Below, one piece after another: positions 9,316-48,226 of a stretch of 64,000 bases of DNA. The number at the start of each line of letters is the position of its first letter. Positions within the stretch are counted from its first letter, which is position 1. Source of the DNA: an uncultured Gammaproteobacteria bacterium (GTDB lineage Bacteria > Patescibacteriota > Patescibacteriia > Magasanikbacterales > GWA2-37-8); NCBI GenBank assembly GCA_964596525.1, contig CAZQUL010000001.1, forward strand, positions 204,830 through 268,829. The letters run 5' to 3'. Below the pieces are notes generated by a model. That model was not told the origin of the DNA. It made no database searches and saw only the letters and a program-made list of their open reading frames with translations. The translations under genes and the position numbers were made by a program.

Positions 9316-9810
9316 ATGCACATTCCCGTTTCGGTCTTCGTGGGACTGGTTGGCTGGGTGTTTCTGAGCGTTGTTTTGCTCATACGATCCAGAAAGAAAA
9401 TCGACCGCGGCTCGCGAATTTTCAACTGCCCATCGAATGCAGCGGCGCGTGCCGTGGCGGAAATAGTCAGCCAATATCATATCGAACCGCGCTACCGATT
9501 CGACACTACTCTTGTTAAACGCATTCTTTTCGATGATGGCACCGTAGTGACCGTAACCGATCATGAACTACGCGCAATCATGGGCAATTGCGGCGCCGGC
9601 ATCGCACTCACCACTCCCGACCCGGAGCGTGCAGCCGTGAATGCTGCCTGTTTTCTGGAGGAGCAAGGTTTTGAAGCAACAGTACTCGGGGCGCTCGATC
9701 CCGAAGCTTCCCCGAATATCATCTTCCTCGCCTCAAACGCTTTCGACGGCTGGCTGCTCATCTTTCGCCAGAGCGTGCCTATTGATTGGGCACCGCCGCG
9801 TTGGGACTAA
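9316..9810 (+). CDS. hypothetical membrane-anchored protein (164 aa)
   Basis: ATG 9316 preceded by TAAGGAGGAG RBS; N-terminal TM helix. Confidence 0.65.
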   Translation: MHIPVSVFVGLVGWVFLSVVLLIRSRKKIDRGSRIFNCPSNAAARAVAEIVSQYHIEPRYRFDTTLVKRILFDDGTVVTVTDHELRAIMGNCGAGIALTTPDPERAAVNAACFLEEQGFEATVLGALDPEASPNIIFLASNAFDGWLLIFRQSVPIDWAPPRWD

Positions 9811-9908: not shown

Positions 9909-10232
9909 TTACAAACCAAGGAGTTCGGACGACGGCGCTTGGCCGGAAATGTATGTTAAGCTAATAAGCCAGCGTTGATCATCGTCAGTGACGAGCTGGC
10001 GATGATACGCCATAAGGTGGACCGCCCCGGGCGAGATGGTATCGGAACCATATTCGTATGCTCCCTTAGGGACAATCTTTTGGCACAACGGGCAGATCCA
10101 CTTTCGATCCGATCGTCCGGAACTGTAGGCCGTAGCGAGGAGAGCAGCCGCGCGGCACGTGAGCCAGTCAATGCAGGCGCGGGCAGTGGTTGGAGCGGGA
10201 TTTTTCTTGAGAATGAAAAAACGTTCGGCCAT
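9909..10232 (-). CDS. hypothetical protein with a CxxC-type motif (WICPLCQK)
   Basis: ATG 10230-10232 with GAGGAAGGGGG RBS; terminator hairpin immediately 3' (9872-9900). Confidence 0.55.
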   Translation of the reverse strand: MAERFFILKKNPAPTTARACIDWLTCRAAALLATAYSSGRSDRKWICPLCQKIVPKGAYEYGSDTISPGAVHLMAYHRQLVTDDDQRWLISLTYISGQAPSSELLGL

Positions 10233-10353
10233 CACATCCCCCTTCCTCGAATCCACGAGAATCATACTAACTCCGACCGGGAAAAACTGTCAACTACGCG
10301 ATAAAATTTTTATGAAATGTAAAAAGAAGCTTCTCAGCTTCTTTTTTAATGTG

Positions 10354-10818
10354 TCATGATTTTTTTGGTTCTTGGTCGGCCAGAAGATGTTTTTTCTGCA
10401 ATCGATAACGATCAACGGCTTGAATCTGTTGGAGTGTTTTTTGAGCGGTTTCCCATACAGCAGCTTTCTGCGGGCTCAAACGACGAAGAATTTTGCCGAT
10501 CAGTCCTTCAAGATCGCCAATGCGCTTGAGAGCTTGATATTCCATGGCAGCACGTTTCGCTTCCCAGGCGTCCGCCGGACCATCCAAATGATTCCACAAA
10601 ACTTTGTTATCCAAATTACTCACCGCTTCAACATGAAGCTTGGCCAGATCACGATCGGCAGGCAACGCAAGATCCAGTGCGTCGTCGTCAGAAATTTCCG
10701 TTTCAACGGACGGAAGCGAAGTCGCGGCGAATTTTTCCAAATCAGCCCAGGAGTCGATGTCTTCGGGAAGTTCTGAATGCTCGGCGAAGGAGTGGGGGTT
10801 GGGGTGTTCCATATACAA
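10354..10818 (-). CDS. hypothetical acidic protein (154 aa)
   Basis: ORF track; no recognisable motif. Confidence 0.5.
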   Translation of the reverse strand: MYMEHPNPHSFAEHSELPEDIDSWADLEKFAATSLPSVETEISDDDALDLALPADRDLAKLHVEAVSNLDNKVLWNHLDGPADAWEAKRAAMEYQALKRIGDLEGLIGKILRRLSPQKAAVWETAQKTLQQIQAVDRYRLQKKHLLADQEPKKS

Positions 10819-10840
10819 AAGAGTAAGGGTTAGTCTTGAA

Positions 10841-11920
10841 TTATATCAAGTTTTTCCTCTTCTTGTTTATAGTCGACAGCTCTTTTTCGATGTTATCGAT
10901 AAACTTTTTTTCAGTATAACGATGAGCGGTGGTAATTGCTGCCGCTGATACTATATCCCTTTTTTCGTATGGAATGGCGGCTGCTTTTTTGATCGCGTGC
11001 CGAAGTGCTTTCACCGTCCTTTCCACAACAAAACAATTCTTTCCGTCACGCACAAAATCTCTAACACCACCGGAGTCGGTCGCGACGCATACAAGTCCGC
11101 TTGCCATAGCTTCGAGCAACGTGAGTCCAAAACCTTCTTCTTTGGAAAGATGGAAGAATACGTCGCACTTCCGATAAAGCGCAGCAAGCTCTTTATCGCT
11201 GCTTGGTTTATGAACTACGATCGTGCATCTACGGACCGGAGGAACCGGCCCTTGTGTCGTGACGTGGAGCTCGAAATTAATATCACGCAATCCTTGGCAT
11301 GCTTTAATAAGGATATCGAAACCTTTATTACGATTCATAACATTACCTACGAACAACAAACGCAACGGTTGAGTATTTAGCATCGGTCTCACTTTCTTTT
11401 TTGGAAAAAATACCGAAGTATCGACACACGGAGGGATGACAGCAGCTGAAATATTGAAACGATTTTTAAATAAAGTCCGCAGATACTGTGATGGGGTTAT
11501 AAGCTTGACACGTGAGGCGAAAGCTTGGAATGACAAATAGCTAAGAAATTTTAGAGATGATTGTTTAAATGTGTATGCTTCGTTGGCTTGAGCCAAAAAA
11601 ACGGTGGTCCCACGCCCAATGTTCGCAATGCACGGTAGAACGGTGAATACCCAGTTGGCAAGATAGATATCGGCCGGAGGAAGATTATCGGCCAATTTTT
11701 CAATTCCGTTTATAACAAATTTCTTGAGGTCCTTCTTACTGGTTTTGAAAGGAACCGTTATGAACTTGACGCGCGGTGAGAGCGAATAAAAAATGGGTGC
11801 TGAGCCTAGATTGATAATAGTAACTTTGTGTCCCCGCTTAACAAGAGCATTAGCGATGACCGTGAGCATACGATCACCACCGGTCGAGCCTAAACCGAAT
11901 GAAGGAATGGCAACATGCAT
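10841..11920 (-). CDS. glycosyltransferase, GT4 family
   Basis: EEGFGLTLLEAMASG GT4 signature; noticeably lower GC than neighbouring genes. Confidence 0.85.
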   Translation of the reverse strand: MHVAIPSFGLGSTGGDRMLTVIANALVKRGHKVTIINLGSAPIFYSLSPRVKFITVPFKTSKKDLKKFVINGIEKLADNLPPADIYLANWVFTVLPCIANIGRGTTVFLAQANEAYTFKQSSLKFLSYLSFQAFASRVKLITPSQYLRTLFKNRFNISAAVIPPCVDTSVFFPKKKVRPMLNTQPLRLLFVGNVMNRNKGFDILIKACQGLRDINFELHVTTQGPVPPVRRCTIVVHKPSSDKELAALYRKCDVFFHLSKEEGFGLTLLEAMASGLVCVATDSGGVRDFVRDGKNCFVVERTVKALRHAIKKAAAIPYEKRDIVSAAAITTAHRYTEKKFIDNIEKELSTINKKRKNLI

Positions 11921-12023
11921 AAGTTTTTAGAAATTCTATCGGTGTTATAGCATTTATCCTCTTTCCCATCCATACCAACCACAAATCCGCCCACCTCACG
12001 AGGAGGCGAACGGAGAAGGTAGC

Positions 12024-28281: not shown

Positions 28282-29379
28282 TCACGTTTGGCGCGCAGTC
28301 CCTTTAAGCGCCGCGAGCTCCATCTGCGCAACAAAATCAATCAAGTCTTCTTTGTTTTTAACGGCTGTCATCTCGGACGAAAGGCCAATGACACGATGCG
28401 TTGTGCCGTTAATTTCAACGGTGAGCGGATCAAAAAAATGGTCGCGGAGTTCGGGCACTGCCGCGATCACCGCTAAGGAATCATACTGGTTGTACGTACC
28501 AACAAACGGCCAGATTTCATCATCGTACCCCACACCCGGGTCTACCCCACCGCAAAACACCTGTATGAACCAGGCACGATCGCGGCTCAAGGGTAGGGCG
28601 CCTCGCACCGATGAACCAGCGGCCGAAAGTGCCGCTTGCCAGAGCTGCTGTATGCTTTTGCGTTGGCGATCTTTAAGCGCTTGCCCCACCAGCGAACCGG
28701 TGGCCGCAAACTGGTCATAGAGACGAATGGGAAACTGCGCTGCATAGCACGCAGAGCGCATCACAACCGTCATCGGTACACCAAGCACTTGGAGTTCGCG
28801 GTACAAAAATTCCGCGGCCAGCATATCGAACGCGTTATTCGCCGCGTCATCAGGCACCAAAAAACCATGCGCGATGAATGGTGTCGTCGCATTCACAGAT
28901 TTGACACCACCCATAATCGTCACATTCGCTATTTTACGAACGAACAATTCTTTTTCCTCACGCACCAGGCGCGCGGCGTCAGTAAGGCCAGCATTGAGAA
29001 TAAGAATGAGAGAACGATCGGGAGCTGCAAGGAGCGTATCAACCAATAATTTATATCCATCATGAGCTACCTCGTTTTCATGAGCCAGATAACTTACGTC
29101 AGTCTCGTGATGGGAGGTATCTCCACCCACAAAACAATCACTTCCCACACCAACTGGAACGTGCGAAAAACCAAGCTCTTTAAACGTCCCTTTGGCTAAA
29201 CGAGCGCGTGCGCGAGCTGGCTCAAGGCAGGCAATAACCGCAGAGATATCTATGAATCCGGCACGCGCCAGTCCGGCACAGAGTACAAATTTGTGCTCAT
29301 CATCTAAATCTTTACCCGGATCCGTAATGTCAATTATACGGTAGGGAGAAGCAGGCATTGAAACATTAAATCTTTTCAT
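28282..29379 (-). CDS. inosine-uridine nucleoside N-ribohydrolase-like protein
   Basis: N-terminal DITDPGKDLDDEHKF matches the IUNH aspartate cluster DxDxGxDDxxA. Confidence 0.6.
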   Translation of the reverse strand: MKRFNVSMPASPYRIIDITDPGKDLDDEHKFVLCAGLARAGFIDISAVIACLEPARARARLAKGTFKELGFSHVPVGVGSDCFVGGDTSHHETDVSYLAHENEVAHDGYKLLVDTLLAAPDRSLILILNAGLTDAARLVREEKELFVRKIANVTIMGGVKSVNATTPFIAHGFLVPDDAANNAFDMLAAEFLYRELQVLGVPMTVVMRSACYAAQFPIRLYDQFAATGSLVGQALKDRQRKSIQQLWQAALSAAGSSVRGALPLSRDRAWFIQVFCGGVDPGVGYDDEIWPFVGTYNQYDSLAVIAAVPELRDHFFDPLTVEINGTTHRVIGLSSEMTAVKNKEDLIDFVAQMELAALKGTARQT

Positions 29380-29574
29380 AAAAAATCATGGTGACTGAAG
29401 TATAACCAAGGAAACTAAACTTGTTAAGAATATATTTTTTAAGAAAGGCTACACGATACCCACCAAACATGCTCATGAAAAAACTTCACGAGAAATATCA
29501 ATTATAAAAAGACTCGGGAATTCCCGAGCCTCGTTTTTGAGTACCACCATAATCTGAGAGGTACACTACCGGCC

Positions 29575-29982: not shown

Positions 29983-30341
29983 TATCTCCTCTTCTGTGTG
30001 CGATGAAGGAAGATGTAGCTTTAAACCACAGCAATGTCAATGGTTGAGTTTAGAAGGAAAGCCTGGAGGCAGGCGCCATCTTCTAACTAAAAAATCAAGG
30101 TTTTTCTACCTCTTTCCGCTCGCTTTAATACTTTTGCCCGCCGTGTTTAATGTTTCAACAACAATAGCGCGCGGACTGTTCATTGGGGCACTGAGTTGTA
30201 TTTTAGTTACCCTGTTCGTAAACCTATGGTTAGGCTACCAGGCCTACCAAGGAAGAATGAAGAAGCTGCTTCCCGGTACTGATGTTTTTAAATTTTTCGT
30301 TTAGAATTAAAAACTATTTTCAGCATCTAATTTCAGCATCT

Positions 30342-30372
30342 AAAAGACCGGCTTCATGAAAGCCGGTCTTTT
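30342..30372. terminator. symmetric hairpin (copy C of the composite element); acts as bidirectional terminator after the 1014-aa gene
   Basis: aaaagaccggctt-catga-aagccggtctttt; A/T runs on both sides. Confidence 0.6.
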
Positions 30373-30377
30373 AGAGC

Positions 30378-30412
30378 GAACTTTGAAATCGGGCTTTGGA
30401 ACCTGTTTAGAC
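30378..30412 (+). repeat. 35-nt conserved repeat, copy C (GAACTTTGAAATCGGGCTTTGGAACCTGTTTAGAC)
   Basis: 28/35 identical to copy A; lies 5 nt after a 13-bp-stem hairpin, as in copies A and B. Confidence 0.7.
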
Positions 30413-30437
30413 TGGAAATGCTGTATCTTACTGAATT

Positions 30438-38622: not shown

Positions 38623-38770
38623 GGTGCCATGCCTGCTGATATTTTCGCAGGTTTAGGCTTAAATTGTGATAAATCTATTTAAATAGAGACATTAAAGATA
38701 CTTTTAAGTATAGTTTATACTAACAAAAGACTCAGTTTATTAAAAGGATTTCGACAATTAAAAGGTGGGT

Positions 38771-39718
38771 ATGAAAATAGTTAAAAATTTTCCAGAGAGA
38801 TTTCCTATCAGATACGCTATTATTTTGAGGGAGTTTAAAGATGATGACGATGATTTTTCTAATCGAAGAACCTCAGAGAGAAAATTAATAGATGAACAGA
38901 TATTCCGACAATTTATCCTTTTACTTCAAGAACAGCCTCTTGATCGGACTATACTTCAATTGAGTAAAGTGTCCGTTTTATGCAGATCCCTAGGCTTAAA
39001 AGTTTTTGAAGGTGCAAAATTAAACGCAGGAGAAGAGTGGATCAATGAAGTTGAAAAGTATATTTCTTTATTATATCCCGAGGCCCTAGTCCTTACTGAT
39101 ACCACTCGTGGGCATGCTTATAACCTGGGGTTATATAGTTATGCTGGAGCCGGAGAGATTCCTAGCTTCTGGAAAATGTATCAGAAGTATGATGATAAAA
39201 ATTTTTTGGGGGAGAGATTTGGTTTTCATGAGCATTTCGGTGCGATCCTTAGCCGCAGTCGCTTATATGAAAGAATGATGAAAGGAGAAGTAACAGAATC
39301 TTTTTTGTATGAAATGGGAGAGTTATACGAACGGCCTATTTATTTAACAGTTCCTCATTCATCACTGTGGAGTTTTCTCGATAAAGGAAATTTGGAAGGA
39401 GTAGTTCCTACCTATTTAGATATTCTAAAATATAAAAGTTTTATTGAGCAGCTTCCAATTGAGGATTTCGATAAAAGATCCGTTTCTTTAAAAGAAAAAA
39501 TGCACGAGCCAAAAATAACGATTGTTTTATGCAGAAATTGGGTATCTCTTTTTACAGAGGAAATATTATCTTTATATCGTAGTTCAGTGTTTTGCAAAAA
39601 CTGCTCTGCTTGTTTGCCTTTTAATTATAAAGGTAAGTATTGTTTGAGTAGTCCTGAAAATAAGCAATGCAATAGAGAACGTGCTCGCCAGAGAAAAAAG
39701 CTTTCACAAGAAAAATAA
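38771..39718 (+). CDS. hypothetical protein (316 aa) with a C-terminal Cys cluster and basic tail
   Basis: AAAGGTGG RBS then ATG 38771; C-terminal CRNW...CKNCSAC...C...C and RARQRKK. Confidence 0.6.
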   Translation: MKIVKNFPERFPIRYAIILREFKDDDDDFSNRRTSERKLIDEQIFRQFILLLQEQPLDRTILQLSKVSVLCRSLGLKVFEGAKLNAGEEWINEVEKYISLLYPEALVLTDTTRGHAYNLGLYSYAGAGEIPSFWKMYQKYDDKNFLGERFGFHEHFGAILSRSRLYERMMKGEVTESFLYEMGELYERPIYLTVPHSSLWSFLDKGNLEGVVPTYLDILKYKSFIEQLPIEDFDKRSVSLKEKMHEPKITIVLCRNWVSLFTEEILSLYRSSVFCKNCSACLPFNYKGKYCLSSPENKQCNRERARQRKKLSQEK

Positions 39719-39790
39719 ATAACTTGTGAATATTTATATAATTACTTGTTAGGTCTCGACGTAGTAAAGAAAAAATCACAAATGAGTCAC

Positions 39791-39817
39791 AAAAAGCCTC
39801 AGACAATGAGGTTTTTT
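39791..39817 (+). terminator. intrinsic terminator at the end of the AT-rich cargo block
   Basis: aaaaagcctca-gacaa-tgaggtttttt. Confidence 0.6.
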
Positions 39818-39854
39818 ATATTCTGGATTCAGTAAGAAAAAATCATTTAATGTT

Positions 39855-40259
39855 ATGTCGAAAAAATACCATCTAAACCTAATCAAAAACAAACGAAGTT
39901 ACACCCCTACGGAAATCGCCCGGCTTTTGGCCCTCGACGTACGGACATGCTTACGCTGGATTTCTTCCGAAGGCTTGAAACCGGTCCGCGAGGGTGCCCG
40001 TCCGCTCCTGGTCATGGGTCATATCTTGAAAGATTTCTTGAAGAAAAAACAGGCCAAGTTCGGATGCGAGCTGGGAGAAGAGGAGTTTTATTGCCTTCGG
40101 TGCCGCTCGCCGGTCATGGCCCGACCAGAATCCGAGACCATAAGGGAAACAGGAAAAAAGATCGGCAAACATTCCGATCCGCAGCTCGTCCGTCACGCTC
40201 TGTGCGGGCAATGCGGAACGCCGGTAAGGAGATTCGTACGCGTCTCCCGAAAACACTAA
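39855..40259 (+). CDS. HTH DNA-binding protein with C-terminal zinc ribbon (excisionase/regulator candidate)
   Basis: YTPTEIARLLALDVRTCLRWI helix-turn-helix; CLRCRS...CGQCG tetra-Cys motif; first gene after GC returns to host level. Confidence 0.6.
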   Translation: MSKKYHLNLIKNKRSYTPTEIARLLALDVRTCLRWISSEGLKPVREGARPLLVMGHILKDFLKKKQAKFGCELGEEEFYCLRCRSPVMARPESETIRETGKKIGKHSDPQLVRHALCGQCGTPVRRFVRVSRKH

Positions 40260-40323
40260 GTGATACTGGATAGAGACGTCCGTATATACACTTAACCATT
40301 AAATATTCTTTAACCATAAACGT

Positions 40324-41463
40324 ATGGCAAACAATTCGTCCTACGAAAACGAAATCGTCAAAAGGAAGTTCTTCACTTATCTCAAAGACGCTCAAGGTTT
40401 CTCGGATATTTCCGTCCAGTGCATCGAGAAAGCGCTCTGGCTCTGGGACGAGTTTACCGGCAATGCCGACTACGGTTCCTTCGGCGAAAAACAGGCGGTG
40501 GGGTTCAAGGAGTGGTTGAAAAACAAGAAGAAAAACCGTTCCGAAACGCTCGTCAGTCTCTCGTACTGCTACGATAATTTCCGTTACTTGCGGACGTTCT
40601 TTTCCTGGCTCGCCGAACAGCCGGGTTATAAATCGAAAATCAGTCCGGTGGATATCCACTACCTGAATCTTTCCAAGAAAGAGGCTCGTATGGCTATCAT
40701 GCCGAAACCCAAGAAACTGCCCTCTCTCGAAGACGTGAAAAAGGTGATCGAGACCATCCAGCCCAAGAACGAGATAGACCGACGCGACCGGGCGCTTCTT
40801 TCGCTTACACTCCTTACCGGAGCCCGCATTTCGGCGTTAGGCAGTCTCCCGCTCGAGAGTTTCGATGAAAAGCGGATGACGATCGATCAAAACCCCAAGC
40901 TGAATGTCAGGACCAAGTTTTCAAAACGGATCGTGACCGCCCTCATGCCTTTTCCCTACAAGGAAGCCTGCGATTATTTCGTCGACTGGGCCCGTTATTT
41001 GCGTGACGTGAAGGGCTTCGGCCCGTCCGATCCGTTGTTTCCCGCGACCAAGGTAGAAAACGGCCGGGAATCTTTGGGTTACTACAGCAACGGAGAGGTC
41101 GAGCCGGTCTTTTGGAAAAGCGGCAGTTCACTGCGAAAGATTTTCGAGAAGCGGTTCGATAACGCGGGTTTGCCTTACTATCATCCCCATACGTTCAGGC
41201 ACTTGTTGGTCAAAGAGATCTCGAAACTTCCGTTAACCGAAGAACAGAAGAAAGCTATCAGCCAGAATCTGGGTCACGAGCACGTAGGAACGACGTTCGG
41301 CACGTACGGTTACGGTGCCATCGGCGAAGATCGGCAGATAGAGCTTATCCGTACGATGAGCCTGGAAAAAACGGACGCAGGAGCGAATTTATCCGTATCT
41401 AACGAGCAAATAGGCGCTATCGTCGCGGAAGTGTTGAAGAAGCTACCGGCCCATTCGTCATAA
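40324..41463 (+). CDS. tyrosine-type site-specific recombinase/integrase
   Basis: LLTGARISAL (box I Arg), HPHTFRHLLV (HxxR), LGHEHVGTTFGTYGY (catalytic Tyr). Confidence 0.9.
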   Translation: MANNSSYENEIVKRKFFTYLKDAQGFSDISVQCIEKALWLWDEFTGNADYGSFGEKQAVGFKEWLKNKKKNRSETLVSLSYCYDNFRYLRTFFSWLAEQPGYKSKISPVDIHYLNLSKKEARMAIMPKPKKLPSLEDVKKVIETIQPKNEIDRRDRALLSLTLLTGARISALGSLPLESFDEKRMTIDQNPKLNVRTKFSKRIVTALMPFPYKEACDYFVDWARYLRDVKGFGPSDPLFPATKVENGRESLGYYSNGEVEPVFWKSGSSLRKIFEKRFDNAGLPYYHPHTFRHLLVKEISKLPLTEEQKKAISQNLGHEHVGTTFGTYGYGAIGEDRQIELIRTMSLEKTDAGANLSVSNEQIGAIVAEVLKKLPAHSS

Positions 41464-41507
41464 CGTTCTTTCTCGGATCTTTTTCTAAAGAATGGTATGC
41501 TTAAGGG

Positions 41508-41577
41508 GCTACACAAAAGCCGGAAACATGACGTGAAGTCGTGGCCAATAGAGGGGCGACGAGGGCTTTTGTGTAGC
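41508..41577. repeat. 14-bp perfect inverted repeat (GCTACACAAAAGCC / GGCTTTTGTGTAGC) separated by 42 nt, between the integrase and serine recombinase genes
   Basis: Arms 41508-41521 and 41564-41577 read directly from the sequence. Confidence 0.7.
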
Positions 41578-41695
41578 AACAACAAGTCATTTCGGAGCCC
41601 CTCTTTTGGTTCTCCTCCCCCTTTCGCTTTCGAGGACGACGCCATCGACTACTTGGCCGAGACCCTCGTCGAAGCCTTCTTAGAACGAAAAACGT

Positions 41696-43243
41696 ATGTT
41701 CGAAAACAAGTCCATAACCAAACGAGCGGTGATTTATTGCCGGGTGTCGACGCGTGAGCAGGTCGACGAAGGTAGCAGTCTCATTACCCAAGAGAAAGTC
41801 TGTCGTGAATACGCGACTAAAAACGGTTTCGAGGTCGCGCAGGTATTCCTCGAACAAGGCGAGAGCGCCAAGACCGCCGATCGTACGGAGCTGCAAAAAC
41901 TCCTGGTTTACTGCTCCGACAAGAAACAAGGGATCGGTGCGGTTATCGTGTACAAACTGGACCGCCTCTCGCGCAATACCGATGATTATAGCCAACTCAG
42001 ACTGCTCCTCAAGCGTTACGGGGTCGAGATACGTTCGACGAGCGAGTTTTTCGAGAACACTCCGGCGGGTCGTTTCATGGAAAACATCATCGCCAACGTC
42101 GCGCAGTTCGATAACGATGTTCGTGCAGAGCGATGCGCCGGAGGCATGAAAGACGCCATGCGCGAAGGACGGTTCGTTTGGATGGCTCCGGTGGGCTACG
42201 AGAATGCCAAGGTCGGAGGCAAACCGAACATCCGACAGAACCCCGTCATGGCCCCGCTTATAAAACAGGCTTTCGAGTCGGTGGCCAAAGGTTTTTACGA
42301 TATCGACGAAGTGAGGAAGAAAATGAACGAGGCCGGGCTCAAGGGATACAAAGGTAAACCTATTTCCAAAAGCTACTTCTACCGTTTGTTGAAGAATCGG
42401 GTATACCTCGGCTACATCGAAAAATTCGGAGAGAGCCACAAAGGGCTGTTCGAGCCTATAATCGACGAGGAGCTTTTCAACCAGGTCCAACGCGTCCTCA
42501 AGAACAAAGGCCGCAAGATAGCCGCCTACAAGGCCGATAACCCCGATTTTCCACTCCGACGCTTCGTCGAGCACCCGTCAGGCCGTAAATTGACCGGCAG
42601 TTGGTCGAAGGGCCGTTCGGGCACGAAATACCCCTTCTACCGTTTCGGTATGAAAGGAAGCAATTACCGTCGTGACGATTTCGAGAAGGAGTATATGGCT
42701 TTCATGGATAGCTACGCTTTCGACGAGGAAAAGATCGAAAAACTCAAACAGACCGTACGCGAGAAATTCGGCAAAGCGACCGAGAATGAACGAAACGAGG
42801 CGCACCGGCTCCGTTTGCGTCAACAGGAGCTTGTCGAGCAGCAGAACGTTCTGGTGCAGAAAAACTTGAAAGGCATCATCAACGACGTAGTCCTTAAACA
42901 ACAGCTCGATTTGATCGATAAAGAAGCCGACGAAATCTATGCCGCTTTAACCGCCTATAACGAGAACGAGATAAACGTCGAAGAAGCGGTCGCGTTCGCC
43001 GAAGAGTATCTGCGTTCTCCGAGTTCGGTCTGGAAGAAAGCGCTTTTGCCGAGCAAGCTCAAACTCCAACGGTTCCAATTTCCGCGTGGCGTGAGTTTTG
43101 ACGGAAAAATATTTGGAACCACCGAAACTGCGCTAGTCTTCCAACTAAAAGACTGGCTTTCTTCAAACCAGTCTTCTGTAGTGGACCAATGGGGATTCGA
43201 ACCCCAGACCTTCGCCTTGCAAAGGCGTTGCTCTACCAACTGA
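41696..43243 (+). CDS. large serine recombinase (resolvase/invertase N-terminal domain + recombinase domain)
   Basis: AVIYCRVSTREQ (Ser nucleophile), LDRLSRN, large C-terminal recombinase/coiled-coil region; the last 62 nt run antisense into tRNA-Ala so the true 3' end is uncertain. Confidence 0.9.
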   Translation: MFENKSITKRAVIYCRVSTREQVDEGSSLITQEKVCREYATKNGFEVAQVFLEQGESAKTADRTELQKLLVYCSDKKQGIGAVIVYKLDRLSRNTDDYSQLRLLLKRYGVEIRSTSEFFENTPAGRFMENIIANVAQFDNDVRAERCAGGMKDAMREGRFVWMAPVGYENAKVGGKPNIRQNPVMAPLIKQAFESVAKGFYDIDEVRKKMNEAGLKGYKGKPISKSYFYRLLKNRVYLGYIEKFGESHKGLFEPIIDEELFNQVQRVLKNKGRKIAAYKADNPDFPLRRFVEHPSGRKLTGSWSKGRSGTKYPFYRFGMKGSNYRRDDFEKEYMAFMDSYAFDEEKIEKLKQTVREKFGKATENERNEAHRLRLRQQELVEQQNVLVQKNLKGIINDVVLKQQLDLIDKEADEIYAALTAYNENEINVEEAVAFAEEYLRSPSSVWKKALLPSKLKLQRFQFPRGVSFDGKIFGTTETALVFQLKDWLSSNQSSVVDQWGFEPQTFALQRRCSTN

Positions 43244-43254
43244 GCTATTGGCCC
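43182..43254 (-). tRNA. tRNA-Ala (anticodon UGC)
   Basis: Revcomp GGGCCAATAGCTCAGTTGGTAGAGCAACGCCTTTGCAAGGCGAAGGTCTGGGGTTCGAATCCCCATTGGTCCA folds as a 73-nt cloverleaf; anticodon loop TTTGCAA; G3:U70 alanine identity pair; GGTTCGAATCC T-loop; CCA not encoded. Confidence 0.9.
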
Positions 43255-46420: not shown

Positions 46421-46858
46421 CTACTCGAGGAAGCGGTTGGGCTGATCCCTGAGCAGTCCCGATCCGCCGAGCTCGGGCGGGATCACGTCCCGGCTGTGGA
46501 AGTACAGGACGCCCCCAGCCTTGTTGAGCGGGCTTGAGTCCTGCCCGTCGTCCACCAGCTCGACCGCGAACAGGCCGTAGTTGTTGTCGCCGCAGGTCAC
46601 CGAGCATTCGGTGAGGCCCTTCACGACAAGGTGGTCGTCCGTGTTGGGCATGATGGGCTGACCCGCGCAGTCGAGGAGCTGGACTCCCGCGGGGAGCGGC
46701 GCGACCGTCTTGATCCGTACGCCCTTGGTCGGCTTGCCGGAGCCCATGTCGACGGACACGAAGAGAATCTGAAGAACCATCTTGAGCCCGGTCGCCTCCT
46801 CGGTGAAGGTGAGCTGCGTGCCGTTGTCCGCGATACGCCGATTGCTAGGAATGTACAT
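46421..46858 (-). CDS. hypothetical protein (145 aa), about 65% GC; Hcp-like or tail-tube-like is only a weak guess
   Basis: ATG 46856-46858 with AGGAGG RBS (revcomp 46865-46870); GC well above the window average and flanked by AT-rich DNA. Confidence 0.55.
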   Translation of the reverse strand: MYIPSNRRIADNGTQLTFTEEATGLKMVLQILFVSVDMGSGKPTKGVRIKTVAPLPAGVQLLDCAGQPIMPNTDDHLVVKGLTECSVTCGDNNYGLFAVELVDDGQDSSPLNKAGGVLYFHSRDVIPPELGGSGLLRDQPNRFLE

Positions 46859-47182
46859 GAAATGCCTCCTATAGCGAACCTTCCGCCATGCCCGAACGCT
46901 GCCGAAACGCAGCACTCGTCACGTCGGATTAAAGAGGAAAAAATATTTTTTGCTCTTTACTCCAGCGCGAGATATTCTTTTTAAGAACAGATGAATATAT
47001 CATCCCTTACTTTTATTGTCAATCATTAACCTCTCTATCTTCAGCTTAAAAACATATTTAACCTTCTTATTAAAACCCTTCTGTGCTCAGGGATGACAGA
47101 AGTATCCGAATAAAATCATCGTCAGCAGCAAACTCACGACATCTGCAAATGCAGAATAGCTTAAATTGGCCAAATTTCGGCC

Positions 47183-47211
47183 TTGACAAAACCCGTTTTC
47201 TGTGGTATACT
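47183..47211 (+). promoter_or_regulatory. consensus sigma70 promoter TTGACA-17-TATACT
   Basis: TTGACA 47183-47188, 17-nt spacer, TATACT 47206-47211. Confidence 0.65.
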
Positions 47212-47217
47212 ATGTTT

Positions 47218-47293
47218 GTGATATTAAGGATATCCTTAGTAAAACAAGCCAAACACACACCCCTACGAGTAATCGCAGGGGTGTGCTGTTTTT
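47218..47293 (+). ncRNA. candidate small RNA of about 75 nt, consensus promoter to intrinsic terminator
   Basis: Starts about 7 nt after the -10; terminator stem CACACCCCT/AGGGGTGTG (47256-47285) followed by CTGTTTTT; the only overlapping ORF is an unconvincing 70-aa frame. Confidence 0.4.
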
Positions 47294-47337
47294 AAGCGTA
47301 AAATATAAGGTTTTATCCTATTTTTAAGACTTATTGA

Positions 47338-47479
47338 TTGACAGAATCGCAGAATTATGGTATTATTTTTTGTTAAATTTGAGCTCTTTTCAACAAACCG
47401 ATGACGTGGATTTACCTCTTGATTTTTCGAGATGTGAACCTACGCTCATCGGTACACTACGTACTAGAAAGGACCACCC
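47338..47479 (+). promoter_or_regulatory. promoter (TTGACA-17-TATTAT) plus about 110-nt conserved leader, copy 1
   Basis: About 70% identical overall to 48288-48427; the last 40 nt (CGCTCATCGGTACACTACGTRCYAGAAAGGACCRCCC-ATG) are nearly identical in the two copies. Confidence 0.6.
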
Positions 47480-48226
47480 ATGACACACCTAACCACTAAC
47501 GATGGAGATAATAACATCATCATCCTCCCTCTCACCGGAGACCGCGAGGCACTTATTAAAAAAGGATGGATCCTGCAGCTCTGGGGAGCAAAGATCGCCT
47601 CGACCGACGAAGATGAAGAGAGGGAATGGTTAACGTCCTACCTGGCCAACTCTGAAAACTCGGAGTTCGATTCGGTCAAAATCGTGTTCCCACGGGGCTG
47701 GAAGATCGAAAACAACAAGTCGACGGACGGAGAAGATTACGACCCTTATGCGGATTGGTGGGCGGTCGACCACATGGGTCGGAGACGGATCCTCGTACAG
47801 CCTCAAAATAAGCGTGGACATGCCTGGTGGCACATCCTGTCGCGCTATGAAATAAAAATCACTACCGAAACTCCCTGGCGCGAAGATGGTGCCCGAATCA
47901 CCCTCTGTACCGGACAGGTCATCGATGGCGGAAAAAATGTGGTGCGAAAGGTCGGGCCGACAGAGCAAGCCGAACTTTCCGTAGCGTATGAGCTGGCAGA
48001 CTACACCAGATCTCTTCATCCATCCTGGAACGATCCAGTCACCAGCTGGTTCTCTCCAGAATTCAACCCTTTCCGCGGCGAGTTCAGAGCGCACGCTGAA
48101 ATGACACAGCTCTTCACGCACTGGTTCTTCCTGCTGAAAAACAGATCCCACCTGCTCGCTGAGAATTGCGGCGACATAACTTCATTCGCCGAGCGCCTCA
48201 ACGATCAGTCCAGGAATCTCCTGTAA
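47480..48226 (+). CDS. hypothetical protein, paralog of the 45499..46293 product
   Basis: Shared WNDPVTSWFSPEFNPFRGE and FPRGW...WWAVDHMGRRR motifs. Confidence 0.6.
   Translation: MTHLTTNDGDNNIIILPLTGDREALIKKGWILQLWGAKIASTDEDEEREWLTSYLANSENSEFDSVKIVFPRGWKIENNKSTDGEDYDPYADWWAVDHMGRRRILVQPQNKRGHAWWHILSRYEIKITTETPWREDGARITLCTGQVIDGGKNVVRKVGPTEQAELSVAYELADYTRSLHPSWNDPVTSWFSPEFNPFRGEFRAHAEMTQLFTHWFFLLKNRSHLLAENCGDITSFAERLNDQSRNLL

Follow-up and report, generated by a model that had tools for sequence, protein, structure and literature searches.

Stacked integrative units at a Patescibacteria tRNA-Ala gene, probably inserted by a large serine recombinase with its attachment site in its own reading frame

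We analysed a 64-kb stretch of DNA from a member of the Patescibacteriota (contig CAZQUL010000001.1, positions 204,830 to 268,829; hereafter the window), where an island of 12.8 kb lies next to the gene of tRNA-Ala(UGC). We propose that the island is a series of stacked integrative units at the 3' end of this tRNA gene, inserted by the large serine recombinase (LSR) that is encoded beside the tRNA and not by the tyrosine integrase that is encoded in the same island, and to this reading we assign a probability of about 0.8. In the model, the attachment site of the element (attP) would lie within the last ~100 nt of the LSR's own reading frame. As judged from the sequences, our confidence in the family-wide split-gene architecture is high, and that in the history of a three-unit stack is moderate; the integration in this host, the exact crossover dinucleotide, the order of the units and the functional effect of the tail swap are what we infer. 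An earlier note on this DNA had likewise described an integrative island associated with tRNA-Ala, and the borders it gave are near those found here (30376 and the tRNA at 43181).

An attachment site inside the recombinase frame

The LSR gene in its integrated form occupies 41696..43243 (+) and encodes 515 aa with a Resolvase and a Recombinase domain. The resolvase domain (PF00239, E = 1.9e-33) contains the catalytic-serine motif AVIYCRVSTREQ and matches the catalytic domains of PDB entries 3guv and 3bvp, and the Recombinase domain (PF07508, E = 2.1e-11) covers residues 185-270. Residues 1-495 are native, V496 and D497 come from the shared core, and residues 498-515 are a translation of antisense tRNA, with the frame passing antisense through 63 nt of the tRNA-Ala(UGC) gene (43181..43254, minus strand; 70.8 bits). 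This tRNA gene, which is intact and which we propose as the integration target (B' arm), is the sole one that ARAGORN and Rfam give for the window, and its 3' end points toward the island. The core, GTGGAC at 43181..43186, codes V496-D497 and corresponds in antisense to tRNA positions 69-74, i.e., to the last four acceptor bases, the discriminator and the first C; to the right of it all is tRNA and to the left all is recombinase coding sequence. Over this short core, and over nothing more, the tRNA junction and the tail junctions described below are alike.

Based on the model, the site of the free element would consist of a P arm, GTGGAC and a P' arm, with both arms coding. The P arm would encode '...K(D/E)AF..S.xV' and form a terminator-like hairpin on the opposite strand, and the P' arm would encode the native tail 'F..GFWN.F..E..YL..IL'. 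A crossover in or beside GTGGAC, at the 3' end of the tRNA, would keep the whole mature tRNA host-derived and provide it with a new 3' trailer and terminator hairpin from the element, and it would at the same time fuse the LSR frame to tRNA-antisense codons and relocate the native tail, of ~30 residues, to the opposite end of the inserted segment. A hairpin is indeed present within the LSR coding sequence at 43143..43176, in the codons for LKDWLSSNQSS (-22.3 kcal/mol, z = -5.15); on the minus strand it resembles a tRNA-Ala terminator (P arm) and is followed by U-rich sequence, and equivalent hairpins are present in the P arms of three related loci (L067, L068 and L069). It is noted that the FWN codons of the tail (TTTTGGAAC), which end 27 nt from the start of GTGGAC, resemble the T-loop TTCGAAC of the tRNA, which ends at 22 nt, and that structural work on serine integrases has described a 5-bp offset between the half-sites of attP and attB. 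This likeness, seen in the sequences, may serve as a lead.

The native tail can be recognised at a distance from the LSR gene. At 34885..34983 (+) lies a stretch, termed tail copy 3, that opens with GTGGAC and encodes VDFEIGFWNRFRLEIQYLFEILQCSTSKINKK followed by a stop. A profile HMM was built from 20 native tails with the window excluded and was run against 7,634 six-frame fragments from the window and seven related loci; its best match was window 34885-34950 (E = 7e-6), and its second-best was L002 6211-6291 (E = 2e-5). By its sequence, tail copy 3 is the original 3' end of the LSR gene, now separated from it (P' arm).

The same division of the protein is seen across its homologues. A large protein collection was queried with the LSR body joined to the copy-3 peptide, and among the 8,000 candidates scored there were 1,661 LSR homologues at E <= 1e-30. 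The 120 best matches, which comprise the window's own protein and homologues at 54-66% identity, mostly from Patescibacteria where labelled, are alike up to '...S.xVD' and then split into distinct C-terminal states. Antisense tails of the tRNA-Ala(UGC) type (VDPTGLEPATPSLQMRCSTR and variants) are present in 71 of the 120 and antisense tails from other tRNAs in 11, so that tRNA-antisense tails make up ~82 of the 120 in all; the native tail VD[FYL]G..FWN.F..E..YL..ILK is present in ~24, and with this consensus the three tail peptides of the window agree. In the remaining ~14 the end is of another kind or truncated, and seven of these proteins stop with VVFV or VVLF at the junction point (P0132, P0150, P0175, P0177, P0197, P0205 and P0187). 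The seven show a third C-terminal state, unlike both the native tail and any evident tRNA antisense, which may come from another target or a different crossover partner.

At the level of genome loci, LSR relatives were retrieved from one genome per species, which gave 45 loci with homologues at 43-61% identity. In all five of the Patescibacteria-type loci (L002 and L009 from Saccharibacteria, L020 from Patescibacteria, L027 from Paceibacterota and the unclassified L006) the LSR frame enters the 3' end of a tRNA on the opposite strand; the tRNAs at these loci are Ala, Leu, Glu, Glu and Arg, and with the window the arrangement holds in 6/6. The ~40 Bacteroidota homologues have longer C-termini and no adjacent tRNA. 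In some of their tails, within the C-terminal linker (L046, L040, L011 and L015), we observed stretches such as VTLRGQKIEP and VPTRGRNYEP, aligned with the place where the Patescibacteria genes read the tRNA T-arm in antisense (RG.EP); they may be a relic or a mimic of an in-frame tRNA-like site. The earlier note had allowed that the 3' end of the LSR gene is degenerate. With the overlap of LSR and tRNA in 6/6 Patescibacteria-type loci and tRNA-antisense tails in ~82 of the 120 closest homologues, decay is therefore not the explanation.

Both the unbroken and the split form of the gene can be found among the related loci. The contig L069, of 12,223 bp, has a terminal overlap of 30 nt and no tRNA and is taken as circular; the frame of its LSR, 64% identical to that of the window, runs over an unbroken hairpin-GTGGAC-tail (P-GTGGAC-P') site, and in contig L068 the frame is likewise unbroken across P-GTGGAC-P'. 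An attachment site in the integrase frame is thus evident in L069, in L068, in the ~24 native-tail homologues and in the tail match of the window. The split form, with the tail at the far end, is seen in L002, where the left junction consists of a host-type terminator hairpin, GTGGAC and a tail, and the right junction, 5.3 kb away, consists of the LSR 3' end, GTGGAC and tRNA-Ala. In L027 the tail (FPLKVDLLETKEFWTDVASDLARLNKNLGH) is situated 660 nt upstream of the LSR start, which gives a minimal element of ~2.2 kb.

Two relatives of the host bear traces of the same family. The locus L067, with a RecA 89% identical to that of the host, keeps the synteny tRNA-Ala-DsbA-RecA and has two tail copies without an LSR; its 69-aa open reading frame (ORF) fuses an LSR-like C-terminus (IFQAKDLLSSSKSSL) to a D1-like peptide (MDFENGFWNRFRQ...), and the hairpin at the join has nearly the same DNA as window 43143-43176. 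In the second relative, L066, an LSR C-terminal remnant of 79 aa is found at tRNA-Ala. The LSR family has thus landed repeatedly at the tRNA-Ala-DsbA-RecA locus. We also observed that the intact-tail LSRs of the chromosomal contigs L250 and L251 adjoin genes of TrwB/TraG-type coupling proteins (L250 3918-9579 and L251 2839-4161), with ArdC and RadC also near in L250, and some members of the family may ride conjugative or mobilisable elements.

Tail repeats, junction hairpins and the stack

A 54-nt direct repeat is present at 30376, 33711 and 34885, marking the left border of the island and two internal junctions, and nhmmer gives no further copies in the window. Each of these tail copies is preceded by a strong hairpin. 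Copy 1 (30376..30453, +; E = 2e-15 by nhmmer within the repeat family) encodes ANFEIGLWNLFRLEMLYL... and may be read as a decayed native LSR tail (P' arm); copy 2 (33711..33764, +) encodes VDFEIGFWNWLRQKMNYL. Copies 2 and 3 open with GTGGAC, the hexamer with which the tRNA opens on the plus strand at 43181, and the homology between these two copies begins exactly there; the differences among the copies are largely synonymous, the encoded peptide being VDFEIGFWN.... The hexamer is common to the window junctions J1, J2 and J3 and to the junctions of L002, L068, L069 and L251.

The hairpin J0 (30339..30375), in front of copy 1, is a perfect 16-bp palindrome (-29.3 kcal/mol on the minus strand, z = -8.0), similar over 15/16 nt to the hairpin at 43143-43176, and we propose it as the 3' flank and terminator that tRNA-Ala had at first (B arm). 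The hairpin J1 (33673..33710; 14 pairs, -16.2 kcal/mol, z = -4.8), with a U-tract on the minus strand, and the hairpin J2 (34849..34884; -21.2 kcal/mol, z = -5.95) form the right ends of units 1 and 2. A simple terminator scan picked one of the four junction hairpins of the window (J1); folded individually, all four are stable, and all fold well on the strand of the tRNA (z = -4.8 to -8.0). A tRNA-like nature of the repeat was considered as well and rejected, with ARAGORN and Rfam giving one tRNA only and manual folding of a T-arm and acceptor failing.

The simplest reading of this arrangement is three units, 30376-33710, 33711-34884 and 34885-43180, each with a P' tail on its left and a hairpin on its right, followed by the next unit or by the tRNA, with GTGGAC at the joins and GCGAAC at copy 1. 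Units 1 and 2 are without a recombinase, and the LSR is in the rightmost unit only. Unit 3 contains an ATPase pair, a restriction-modification pair with a LOOT RNA, a 317-aa gene, a fragment with an HTH gene and a tyrosine integrase, a small ORF and the LSR. The suggestion of a composite element made in the earlier note is borne out in this sense, although its composite nature lies chiefly in the stacking of three units, with a tail copy bounding each, rather than simply in one element inside another. Two routes to the stack may be envisaged. In the first, successive insertions would occur beside the tRNA, with the older recombinase genes lost later; in the second, excision from an inner tail copy would leave the outer units behind and excision from an outer copy would capture them.

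Stacks of this kind are seen elsewhere. In L251 (6021-15635) an intact-tail LSR is followed by four further tail copies of 105 nt, which makes five, at 87-92% identity; the homology of the copies sets in precisely at GTGGACT. Each of the later copies stands at the head of a cassette that holds an HTH_3 gene, a small ORF and cargo such as Fic, a PIF1 helicase or an AAA_15 ATPase. From this array and the two LSR-less tail copies of L067 it follows that such stacks recur in the LSR family.

The model gives predicted products. The circle would join 43180 to 34885 (or to 33711 or 30376), with the copy-3 junction reading ...AACCAGTCTTCTGTA joined through GTGGAC to TTTGAGATTGGATTTTGGAACC. The repaired site would join each hairpin to GTGGACCAATGGGG, i.e., it would read ...GCCGTTTTTGGTTCTTA through GTGGAC into CAATGGGGATTCG, ...GGTTGATTTTGCCTGC through GTGGAC into CAATGGGG, or ...AAGCCGGTCTTTTAGA through G[CT]G[AG]AC into CAATGGGG.

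As a more tentative extension, which we consider possible but do not favour, this LSR clade may run an integron-like cassette system, in which a platform with the recombinase's own 3' end as the primary site is combined with recombinase-less cassettes. The cassettes (three here, five in L251), each opened by a tail copy (P' arm) and closed by a hairpin and GTGGAC, would be excised, left behind or captured in varied combinations at tRNA 3' ends. The tail swap could then signal the free or the integrated state, acting as an intrinsic switch of directionality or stability, and the LOOT RNA could be an element-encoded part of the cassette module.

Composition, cargo and other explanations

The low-GC block extends from ~30.38 to 39.85 kb, with a GC content of 0.36-0.43 versus 0.51-0.53 in the flanks. 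Per segment, the GC content is 0.43 in unit 1 (30376-33710), 0.40 in unit 2 (33711-34884) and 0.36 in the cargo of unit 3 (34885-39849), with a trough of 0.25 at 35.0-35.5 kb; from 39850 it is back to 0.50-0.51 and is held there through the recombinase genes up to the tRNA. The left border at copy 1 coincides with the GC drop. The shift at ~30.3 kb and the recovery at ~39.85 kb that the earlier note had described are real, but its host value of 57% is too high. Its observation that the integration module has a host-like composition is supported both by the GC content and, at the codon level as it had suggested, by the GC content at third positions (GC3), which is 0.60-0.66 in the HTH gene, the tyrosine integrase and the LSR, 0.66-0.70 in the host genes DsbA and RecA and 0.28-0.50 in the cargo.

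The left border has no repeat of the tRNA, as had been noted before: in the window and five related loci no direct repeat of tRNA or flank longer than 11-17 nt is found there, and what the tRNA and tail junctions have in common is the hexamer GTGGAC alone. Beyond GTGGAC the tRNA body has no repeat longer than 11 nt anywhere in the window, the matches of 15-17 nt being the flanking hairpin. The lack of such a repeat is as expected for a serine recombinase; it is the split-off LSR 3' end that marks the border. Beside this border, at 30080-30304 (+), the 3' part of a mechanical 186-aa ORF encodes two hydrophobic helices and stops 35 nt before the J0 hairpin. This part probably represents the host gene that directly precedes the island and codes for a small membrane protein, and the 5' part of the same ORF, which overlaps an opposite-strand membrane gene of 135 aa, is probably spurious. 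Outside the island, 3.5 kb to the right of the tRNA, a short low-GC patch (46750-47500; 0.37-0.43) holds a 30-nt palindrome at 46919-46970 and inverted repeats at 47025-47316, and milder GC dips are present at 29000-29500 (0.43) and 10000-12000 (0.46).

The composition could be read in another way, with the recombinase genes being long-resident chromosomal genes and the AT-rich block at 30.4-39.85 kb being a separate recent insertion by another route. The sharp split of GC and GC3 at 39850, together with the homology of the integrase module to locus L070 that begins exactly at that position, speaks for such a history. However, the tail copy that completes the LSR is at 34885, beyond the cargo, so that the cargo is within a segment bounded by LSR half-sites, and the GC split is better fitted by an exchange of cargo in a resident platform than by an unrelated insertion; we thus regard this explanation as unlikely.

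The cargo carries genes of the defence type that the earlier note had listed, in part. The AAA_15/AAA_21 ATPase (35150..36490, +; AAA_21 E = 2e-15) resembles the defence ATPases AriA (E = 1e-16), PtuA, GajA and HEC-01A. For its partner (36441..37163, +; HEC-01B E = 8e-4), the Toprim domain that had been claimed is weakly supported, with OLD-like_TOPRIM at E = 0.08 being under the cutoff, and is possible. The D12-class N6-adenine DNA methyltransferase (PF02086; 37649..38479, -; E = 6e-60, MTase_II E = 6e-92) and the PD-(D/E)XK nuclease PDDEXK_11 (PF20472; 37165..37683, -; E = 2.8e-36), likely a restriction enzyme, are encoded by overlapping genes in the same orientation, as in a type II restriction-modification pair. 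The 317-aa protein with a Cys-rich C-terminus (38765..39718, +) is without a family match and has a homologue in L201, divergent from LOOT. In unit 1, the 1014-aa protein (30438..33482, -) has no match in Pfam, PADLOC, NCBIfam, PHROGs or PDB sequences. In unit 2, the gene call for a 345-aa protein (33801..34838, +) is without a family match, and its mechanical ORF begins at 33711 only through read-on from the tail repeat.

Directly 5' of the methyltransferase gene is a full-length LOOT RNA (Rfam RF03000; 38538..38659, -; model 1-121), which scores 85.1 bits versus a gathering threshold of 46.4. A second LOOT is present in the L002 element at 9507-9621 (-), divergent from the small ORF and LSR and upstream of an operon with a HEPN/AbiV gene. 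To our knowledge, no genomic context has been given before for this orphan motif. A metagenome scan with the LOOT 5' pattern gave >120 stretches, of which 80 were fetched (L130-L209), making 81 loci with a locus on a viral contig (L126). A distant serine recombinase (mostly 22-33% identical) is within a few kb of LOOT in 30 of the 81, with recurrent placements: divergent at 130-380 nt from LOOT in 9 loci, and starting ~1,330 nt upstream on the same strand in 7. A full recombinase is present in none of the 23 control loci, which are unmatched to the LOOT loci, and we take the association of LOOT with serine recombinases as a lead. As for its function, we found none described: Rfam lists the motif as sRNA only, and the main text of the discovery paper is silent on LOOT.

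The gene next to the LSR is a conserved small ORF of 86 aa (41497..41757, +), which overlaps the LSR start and has no family match. It is 40% identical to an 88-aa ORF of L069 (E = 4e-13), its motif LLCSN...LAEILVEAF is also found upstream of the LSR in L002, L006, L009 and L027, and L250 and L251 have 90-aa genes at the same position; from sequence and placement it is a candidate accessory, regulatory or directionality factor.

Upstream of it lies the tyrosine-integrase module. The integrase (Phage_integrase; 40324..41463, +; 379 aa) looks intact, with its R, H-x-x-R and H...Y motifs readable, and its partner (HTH134; 39855..40259, +; 134 aa) has an excisionase-like HTH (HTH_17) and a CxxC...CxxC ribbon and is 68% identical to the 134-aa gene upstream of the L070 integrase. 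The integrase family is large in Patescibacteria, with 2,219 homologues at E <= 1e-10, many of them 54-81% identical. Nucleotide homology to L070 extends over window 39850-41366, beginning exactly at the GC step. In L070/L071 and in L072, a pair of HTH_3 and M78-peptidase genes and cargo (type I restriction-modification with an AAA_15 ATPase, or metal efflux) are followed by the 134-aa HTH and 379-aa integrase genes and, 5-13 nt after the integrase, by a second tyrosine recombinase of 314 aa, which is absent in the window; no tRNA is near. We also observed a third recombinase (268 aa) in L070/L071; judged by their gene orders, L070 and L071 could be read as one circle of ~15.3 kb, a size equal to the length of the contig. 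No homologue of the tyrosine integrase or HTH134 is found in any LSR locus, and no direct repeats bounding a nested tyrosine-integrase element were found. We read the module (39850-41463) as a piece of an element from another family, lying within the LSR-bounded unit. The claim of two recombinases from different families is upheld, and since the family of the integrase module occurs elsewhere away from tRNAs and from this LSR, the tyrosine integrase was probably not responsible for the insertion at tRNA-Ala.

It could still be supposed that the tyrosine integrase with HTH134 placed the island in the classical way and that the LSR is a later passenger or a decayed gene drifting into the tRNA. 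Insertion at tRNA genes is usually the work of tyrosine integrases (PMC7192596), the one here looks intact and is <1.8 kb from the tRNA, and the same module ends defence or metal-resistance cargo in L070 and L072. However, the small ORF and the LSR intervene between the integrase and the tRNA, the direct repeat of the tRNA 3' segment that characterises a classical tRNA island is missing from the island, and the homologous modules of L070-L072 have no tRNA nearby and have the 314-aa recombinase that is missing here. Moreover, the recurrent overlap of LSR and tRNA (6/6 loci, ~82/120 homologues) is unexplained by decay, and L002 already shows an LSR unit at tRNA-Ala without a tyrosine integrase. 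This supposition is thus very unlikely. That the three 54-nt repeats are regulatory or MITE-like and unrelated to recombination, with borders that are compositional only, is more improbable still: the repeats are short, copies 1 and 2 have no tail-profile score alone and the hairpin beside each could be a plain gene terminator, but the repeats retain an open frame, the peptide that it encodes agrees with the native tail of intact homologues, the homology of the copies begins exactly at the hexamer joining LSR to tRNA, L067 has the fusion of LSR C-terminus and tail, L002 and L027 have the tail at the far end, and nhmmer finds no other copies in the window.

Several observations weigh against our proposal of stacked units inserted by the LSR. 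Regarding the protein, the zinc ribbon typical of LSRs (Pfam PF13408) gives no match at E <= 0.01, and residues 280-345 show no cluster of four cysteines, though the length of 515 aa and a charged region at 345-430 may leave room for a divergent zinc ribbon or coiled-coil; with a full-length Bacteroidota profile, the reconstructed protein gains no higher score than the integrated form. Regarding the stack, copy 2 has E = 4.7 with the tail HMM and copy 1 is unlisted, so that neither is significant alone and both are tied to copy 3 only via a DNA identity of 70-81%; copy 1 bears GCGAAC in place of GTGGAC; LSR remnants were sought in units 1 and 2 and none was detected; and the right-end hairpins of these units differ in sequence from the LSR P arm. 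Regarding the family, some intact-tail homologues are chromosomal without a nearby tRNA (L250). Regarding the host, neither an empty site nor an excised circle nor a strain polymorphism came to light, DsbA is only 55-57% identical in the nearest relatives, which lack synteny on the left flank, and a scan of viral contigs for the predicted attP junction gave no matches.

The comparison with insertion-free relatives that had been advised in the earlier note accordingly yielded no empty site in L047-L064, L066, L067 or the DsbA-related loci (<=57%). None of the genes that flank tRNA-Ala in other Patescibacteria (L047-L064) is shared with the window, and L066 and L067 keep the right flank, not the left. 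Note also that nhmmer found no copies of the repeat when run on 63 genome loci, owing to the strong divergence of the DNA; the tail profile at the protein level succeeded where nhmmer on DNA did not. A tail profile based on Bacteroidota was weak on the window (E = 14), yet it found the L027 tail.

Comparison with known systems and implications

By analogy, SCC/SCCmec with its recombinases CcrA, CcrB and CcrC is the closest functional analogue. In both cases the site of insertion by an LSR is the very 3' end of a conserved housekeeping gene, which is kept, and recombinase-less units, like units 1 and 2 here, stack while bounded by copies of the attachment sequence. The target there is rlmH, however, and here it is a tRNA; the LSR of the window has CcrB as its best NCBIfam match, but with 114 bits versus a cutoff of 900 it is far from being a Ccr protein; and here the attachment site would be inside the recombinase frame, with integration altering the C-terminus.

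An attachment site within the integrase gene, which tRNA integration splits, is known from the SSV-type 'suicidal' tyrosine integrases of viruses and plasmids, whose genes are partitioned at the tRNA and which have been reported from archaea only (PMC8371274). Those tyrosine enzymes are cut into two large inactive parts, whereas here a bacterial serine recombinase would have only its last ~30 codons swapped, with the catalytic and DNA-binding domains still encoded. In mycobacteriophage BPs and its relatives, which have an integration-dependent immunity, attP is in the 3' end of a phage gene and tRNA integration changes the C-terminus and the behaviour of the protein (PMC4557955); there the altered protein is the repressor and the enzyme is a tyrosine integrase, whereas here, from the sequences, the serine recombinase itself would be altered. 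The phage LSRs of A118, Bxb1, phiC31 and TP901-1 have the same Resolvase and Recombinase domains and junctions with a very short shared core and without long direct repeats, but the targets of known examples are protein-coding or intergenic and their attP lies outside the integrase frame, and the Pfam zinc ribbon is undetected in the present protein. The Prochlorococcus tycheposons, of which 910/937 use tyrosine recombinases, have integrated copies beside partial tRNA copies (bioRxiv 10.1101/2020.12.28.424599). They are similar to the present elements in carrying cargo at tRNA genes, in their tandem junctions and variable islands and in a minority that encodes LSRs; the difference is that here there is no partial tRNA copy and it is the tail of the recombinase itself that is repeated. 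According to a 2020 survey, the use of tRNA genes by serine integrases was previously unreported and called for proof (PMC7192596). In the literature searched, with partial coverage and earlier work being possible, we found no description of the split-gene arrangement of LSR and tRNA.

Serine integrases have been regarded as avoiding tRNA genes, and sites within the integrase gene as a peculiarity of archaeal tyrosine enzymes (PMC7192596, PMC8371274). Based on our model, a large bacterial clade would do both, targeting tRNA 3' ends, mostly that of tRNA-Ala(UGC), via a site in its own coding sequence, which would also provide the tRNA with a replacement terminator hairpin. The model gives a delimiting rule for islands of Patescibacteria, namely to seek the split-off tail rather than a repeat of the tRNA, and would explain the apparently 'corrupted' 3' ends of recombinase genes in annotation. 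In addition, the enzymes would be candidate compact integrases with a predictable and conserved target. Finally, we note that the island would show how defence cargo is stacked and exchanged in very small genomes.

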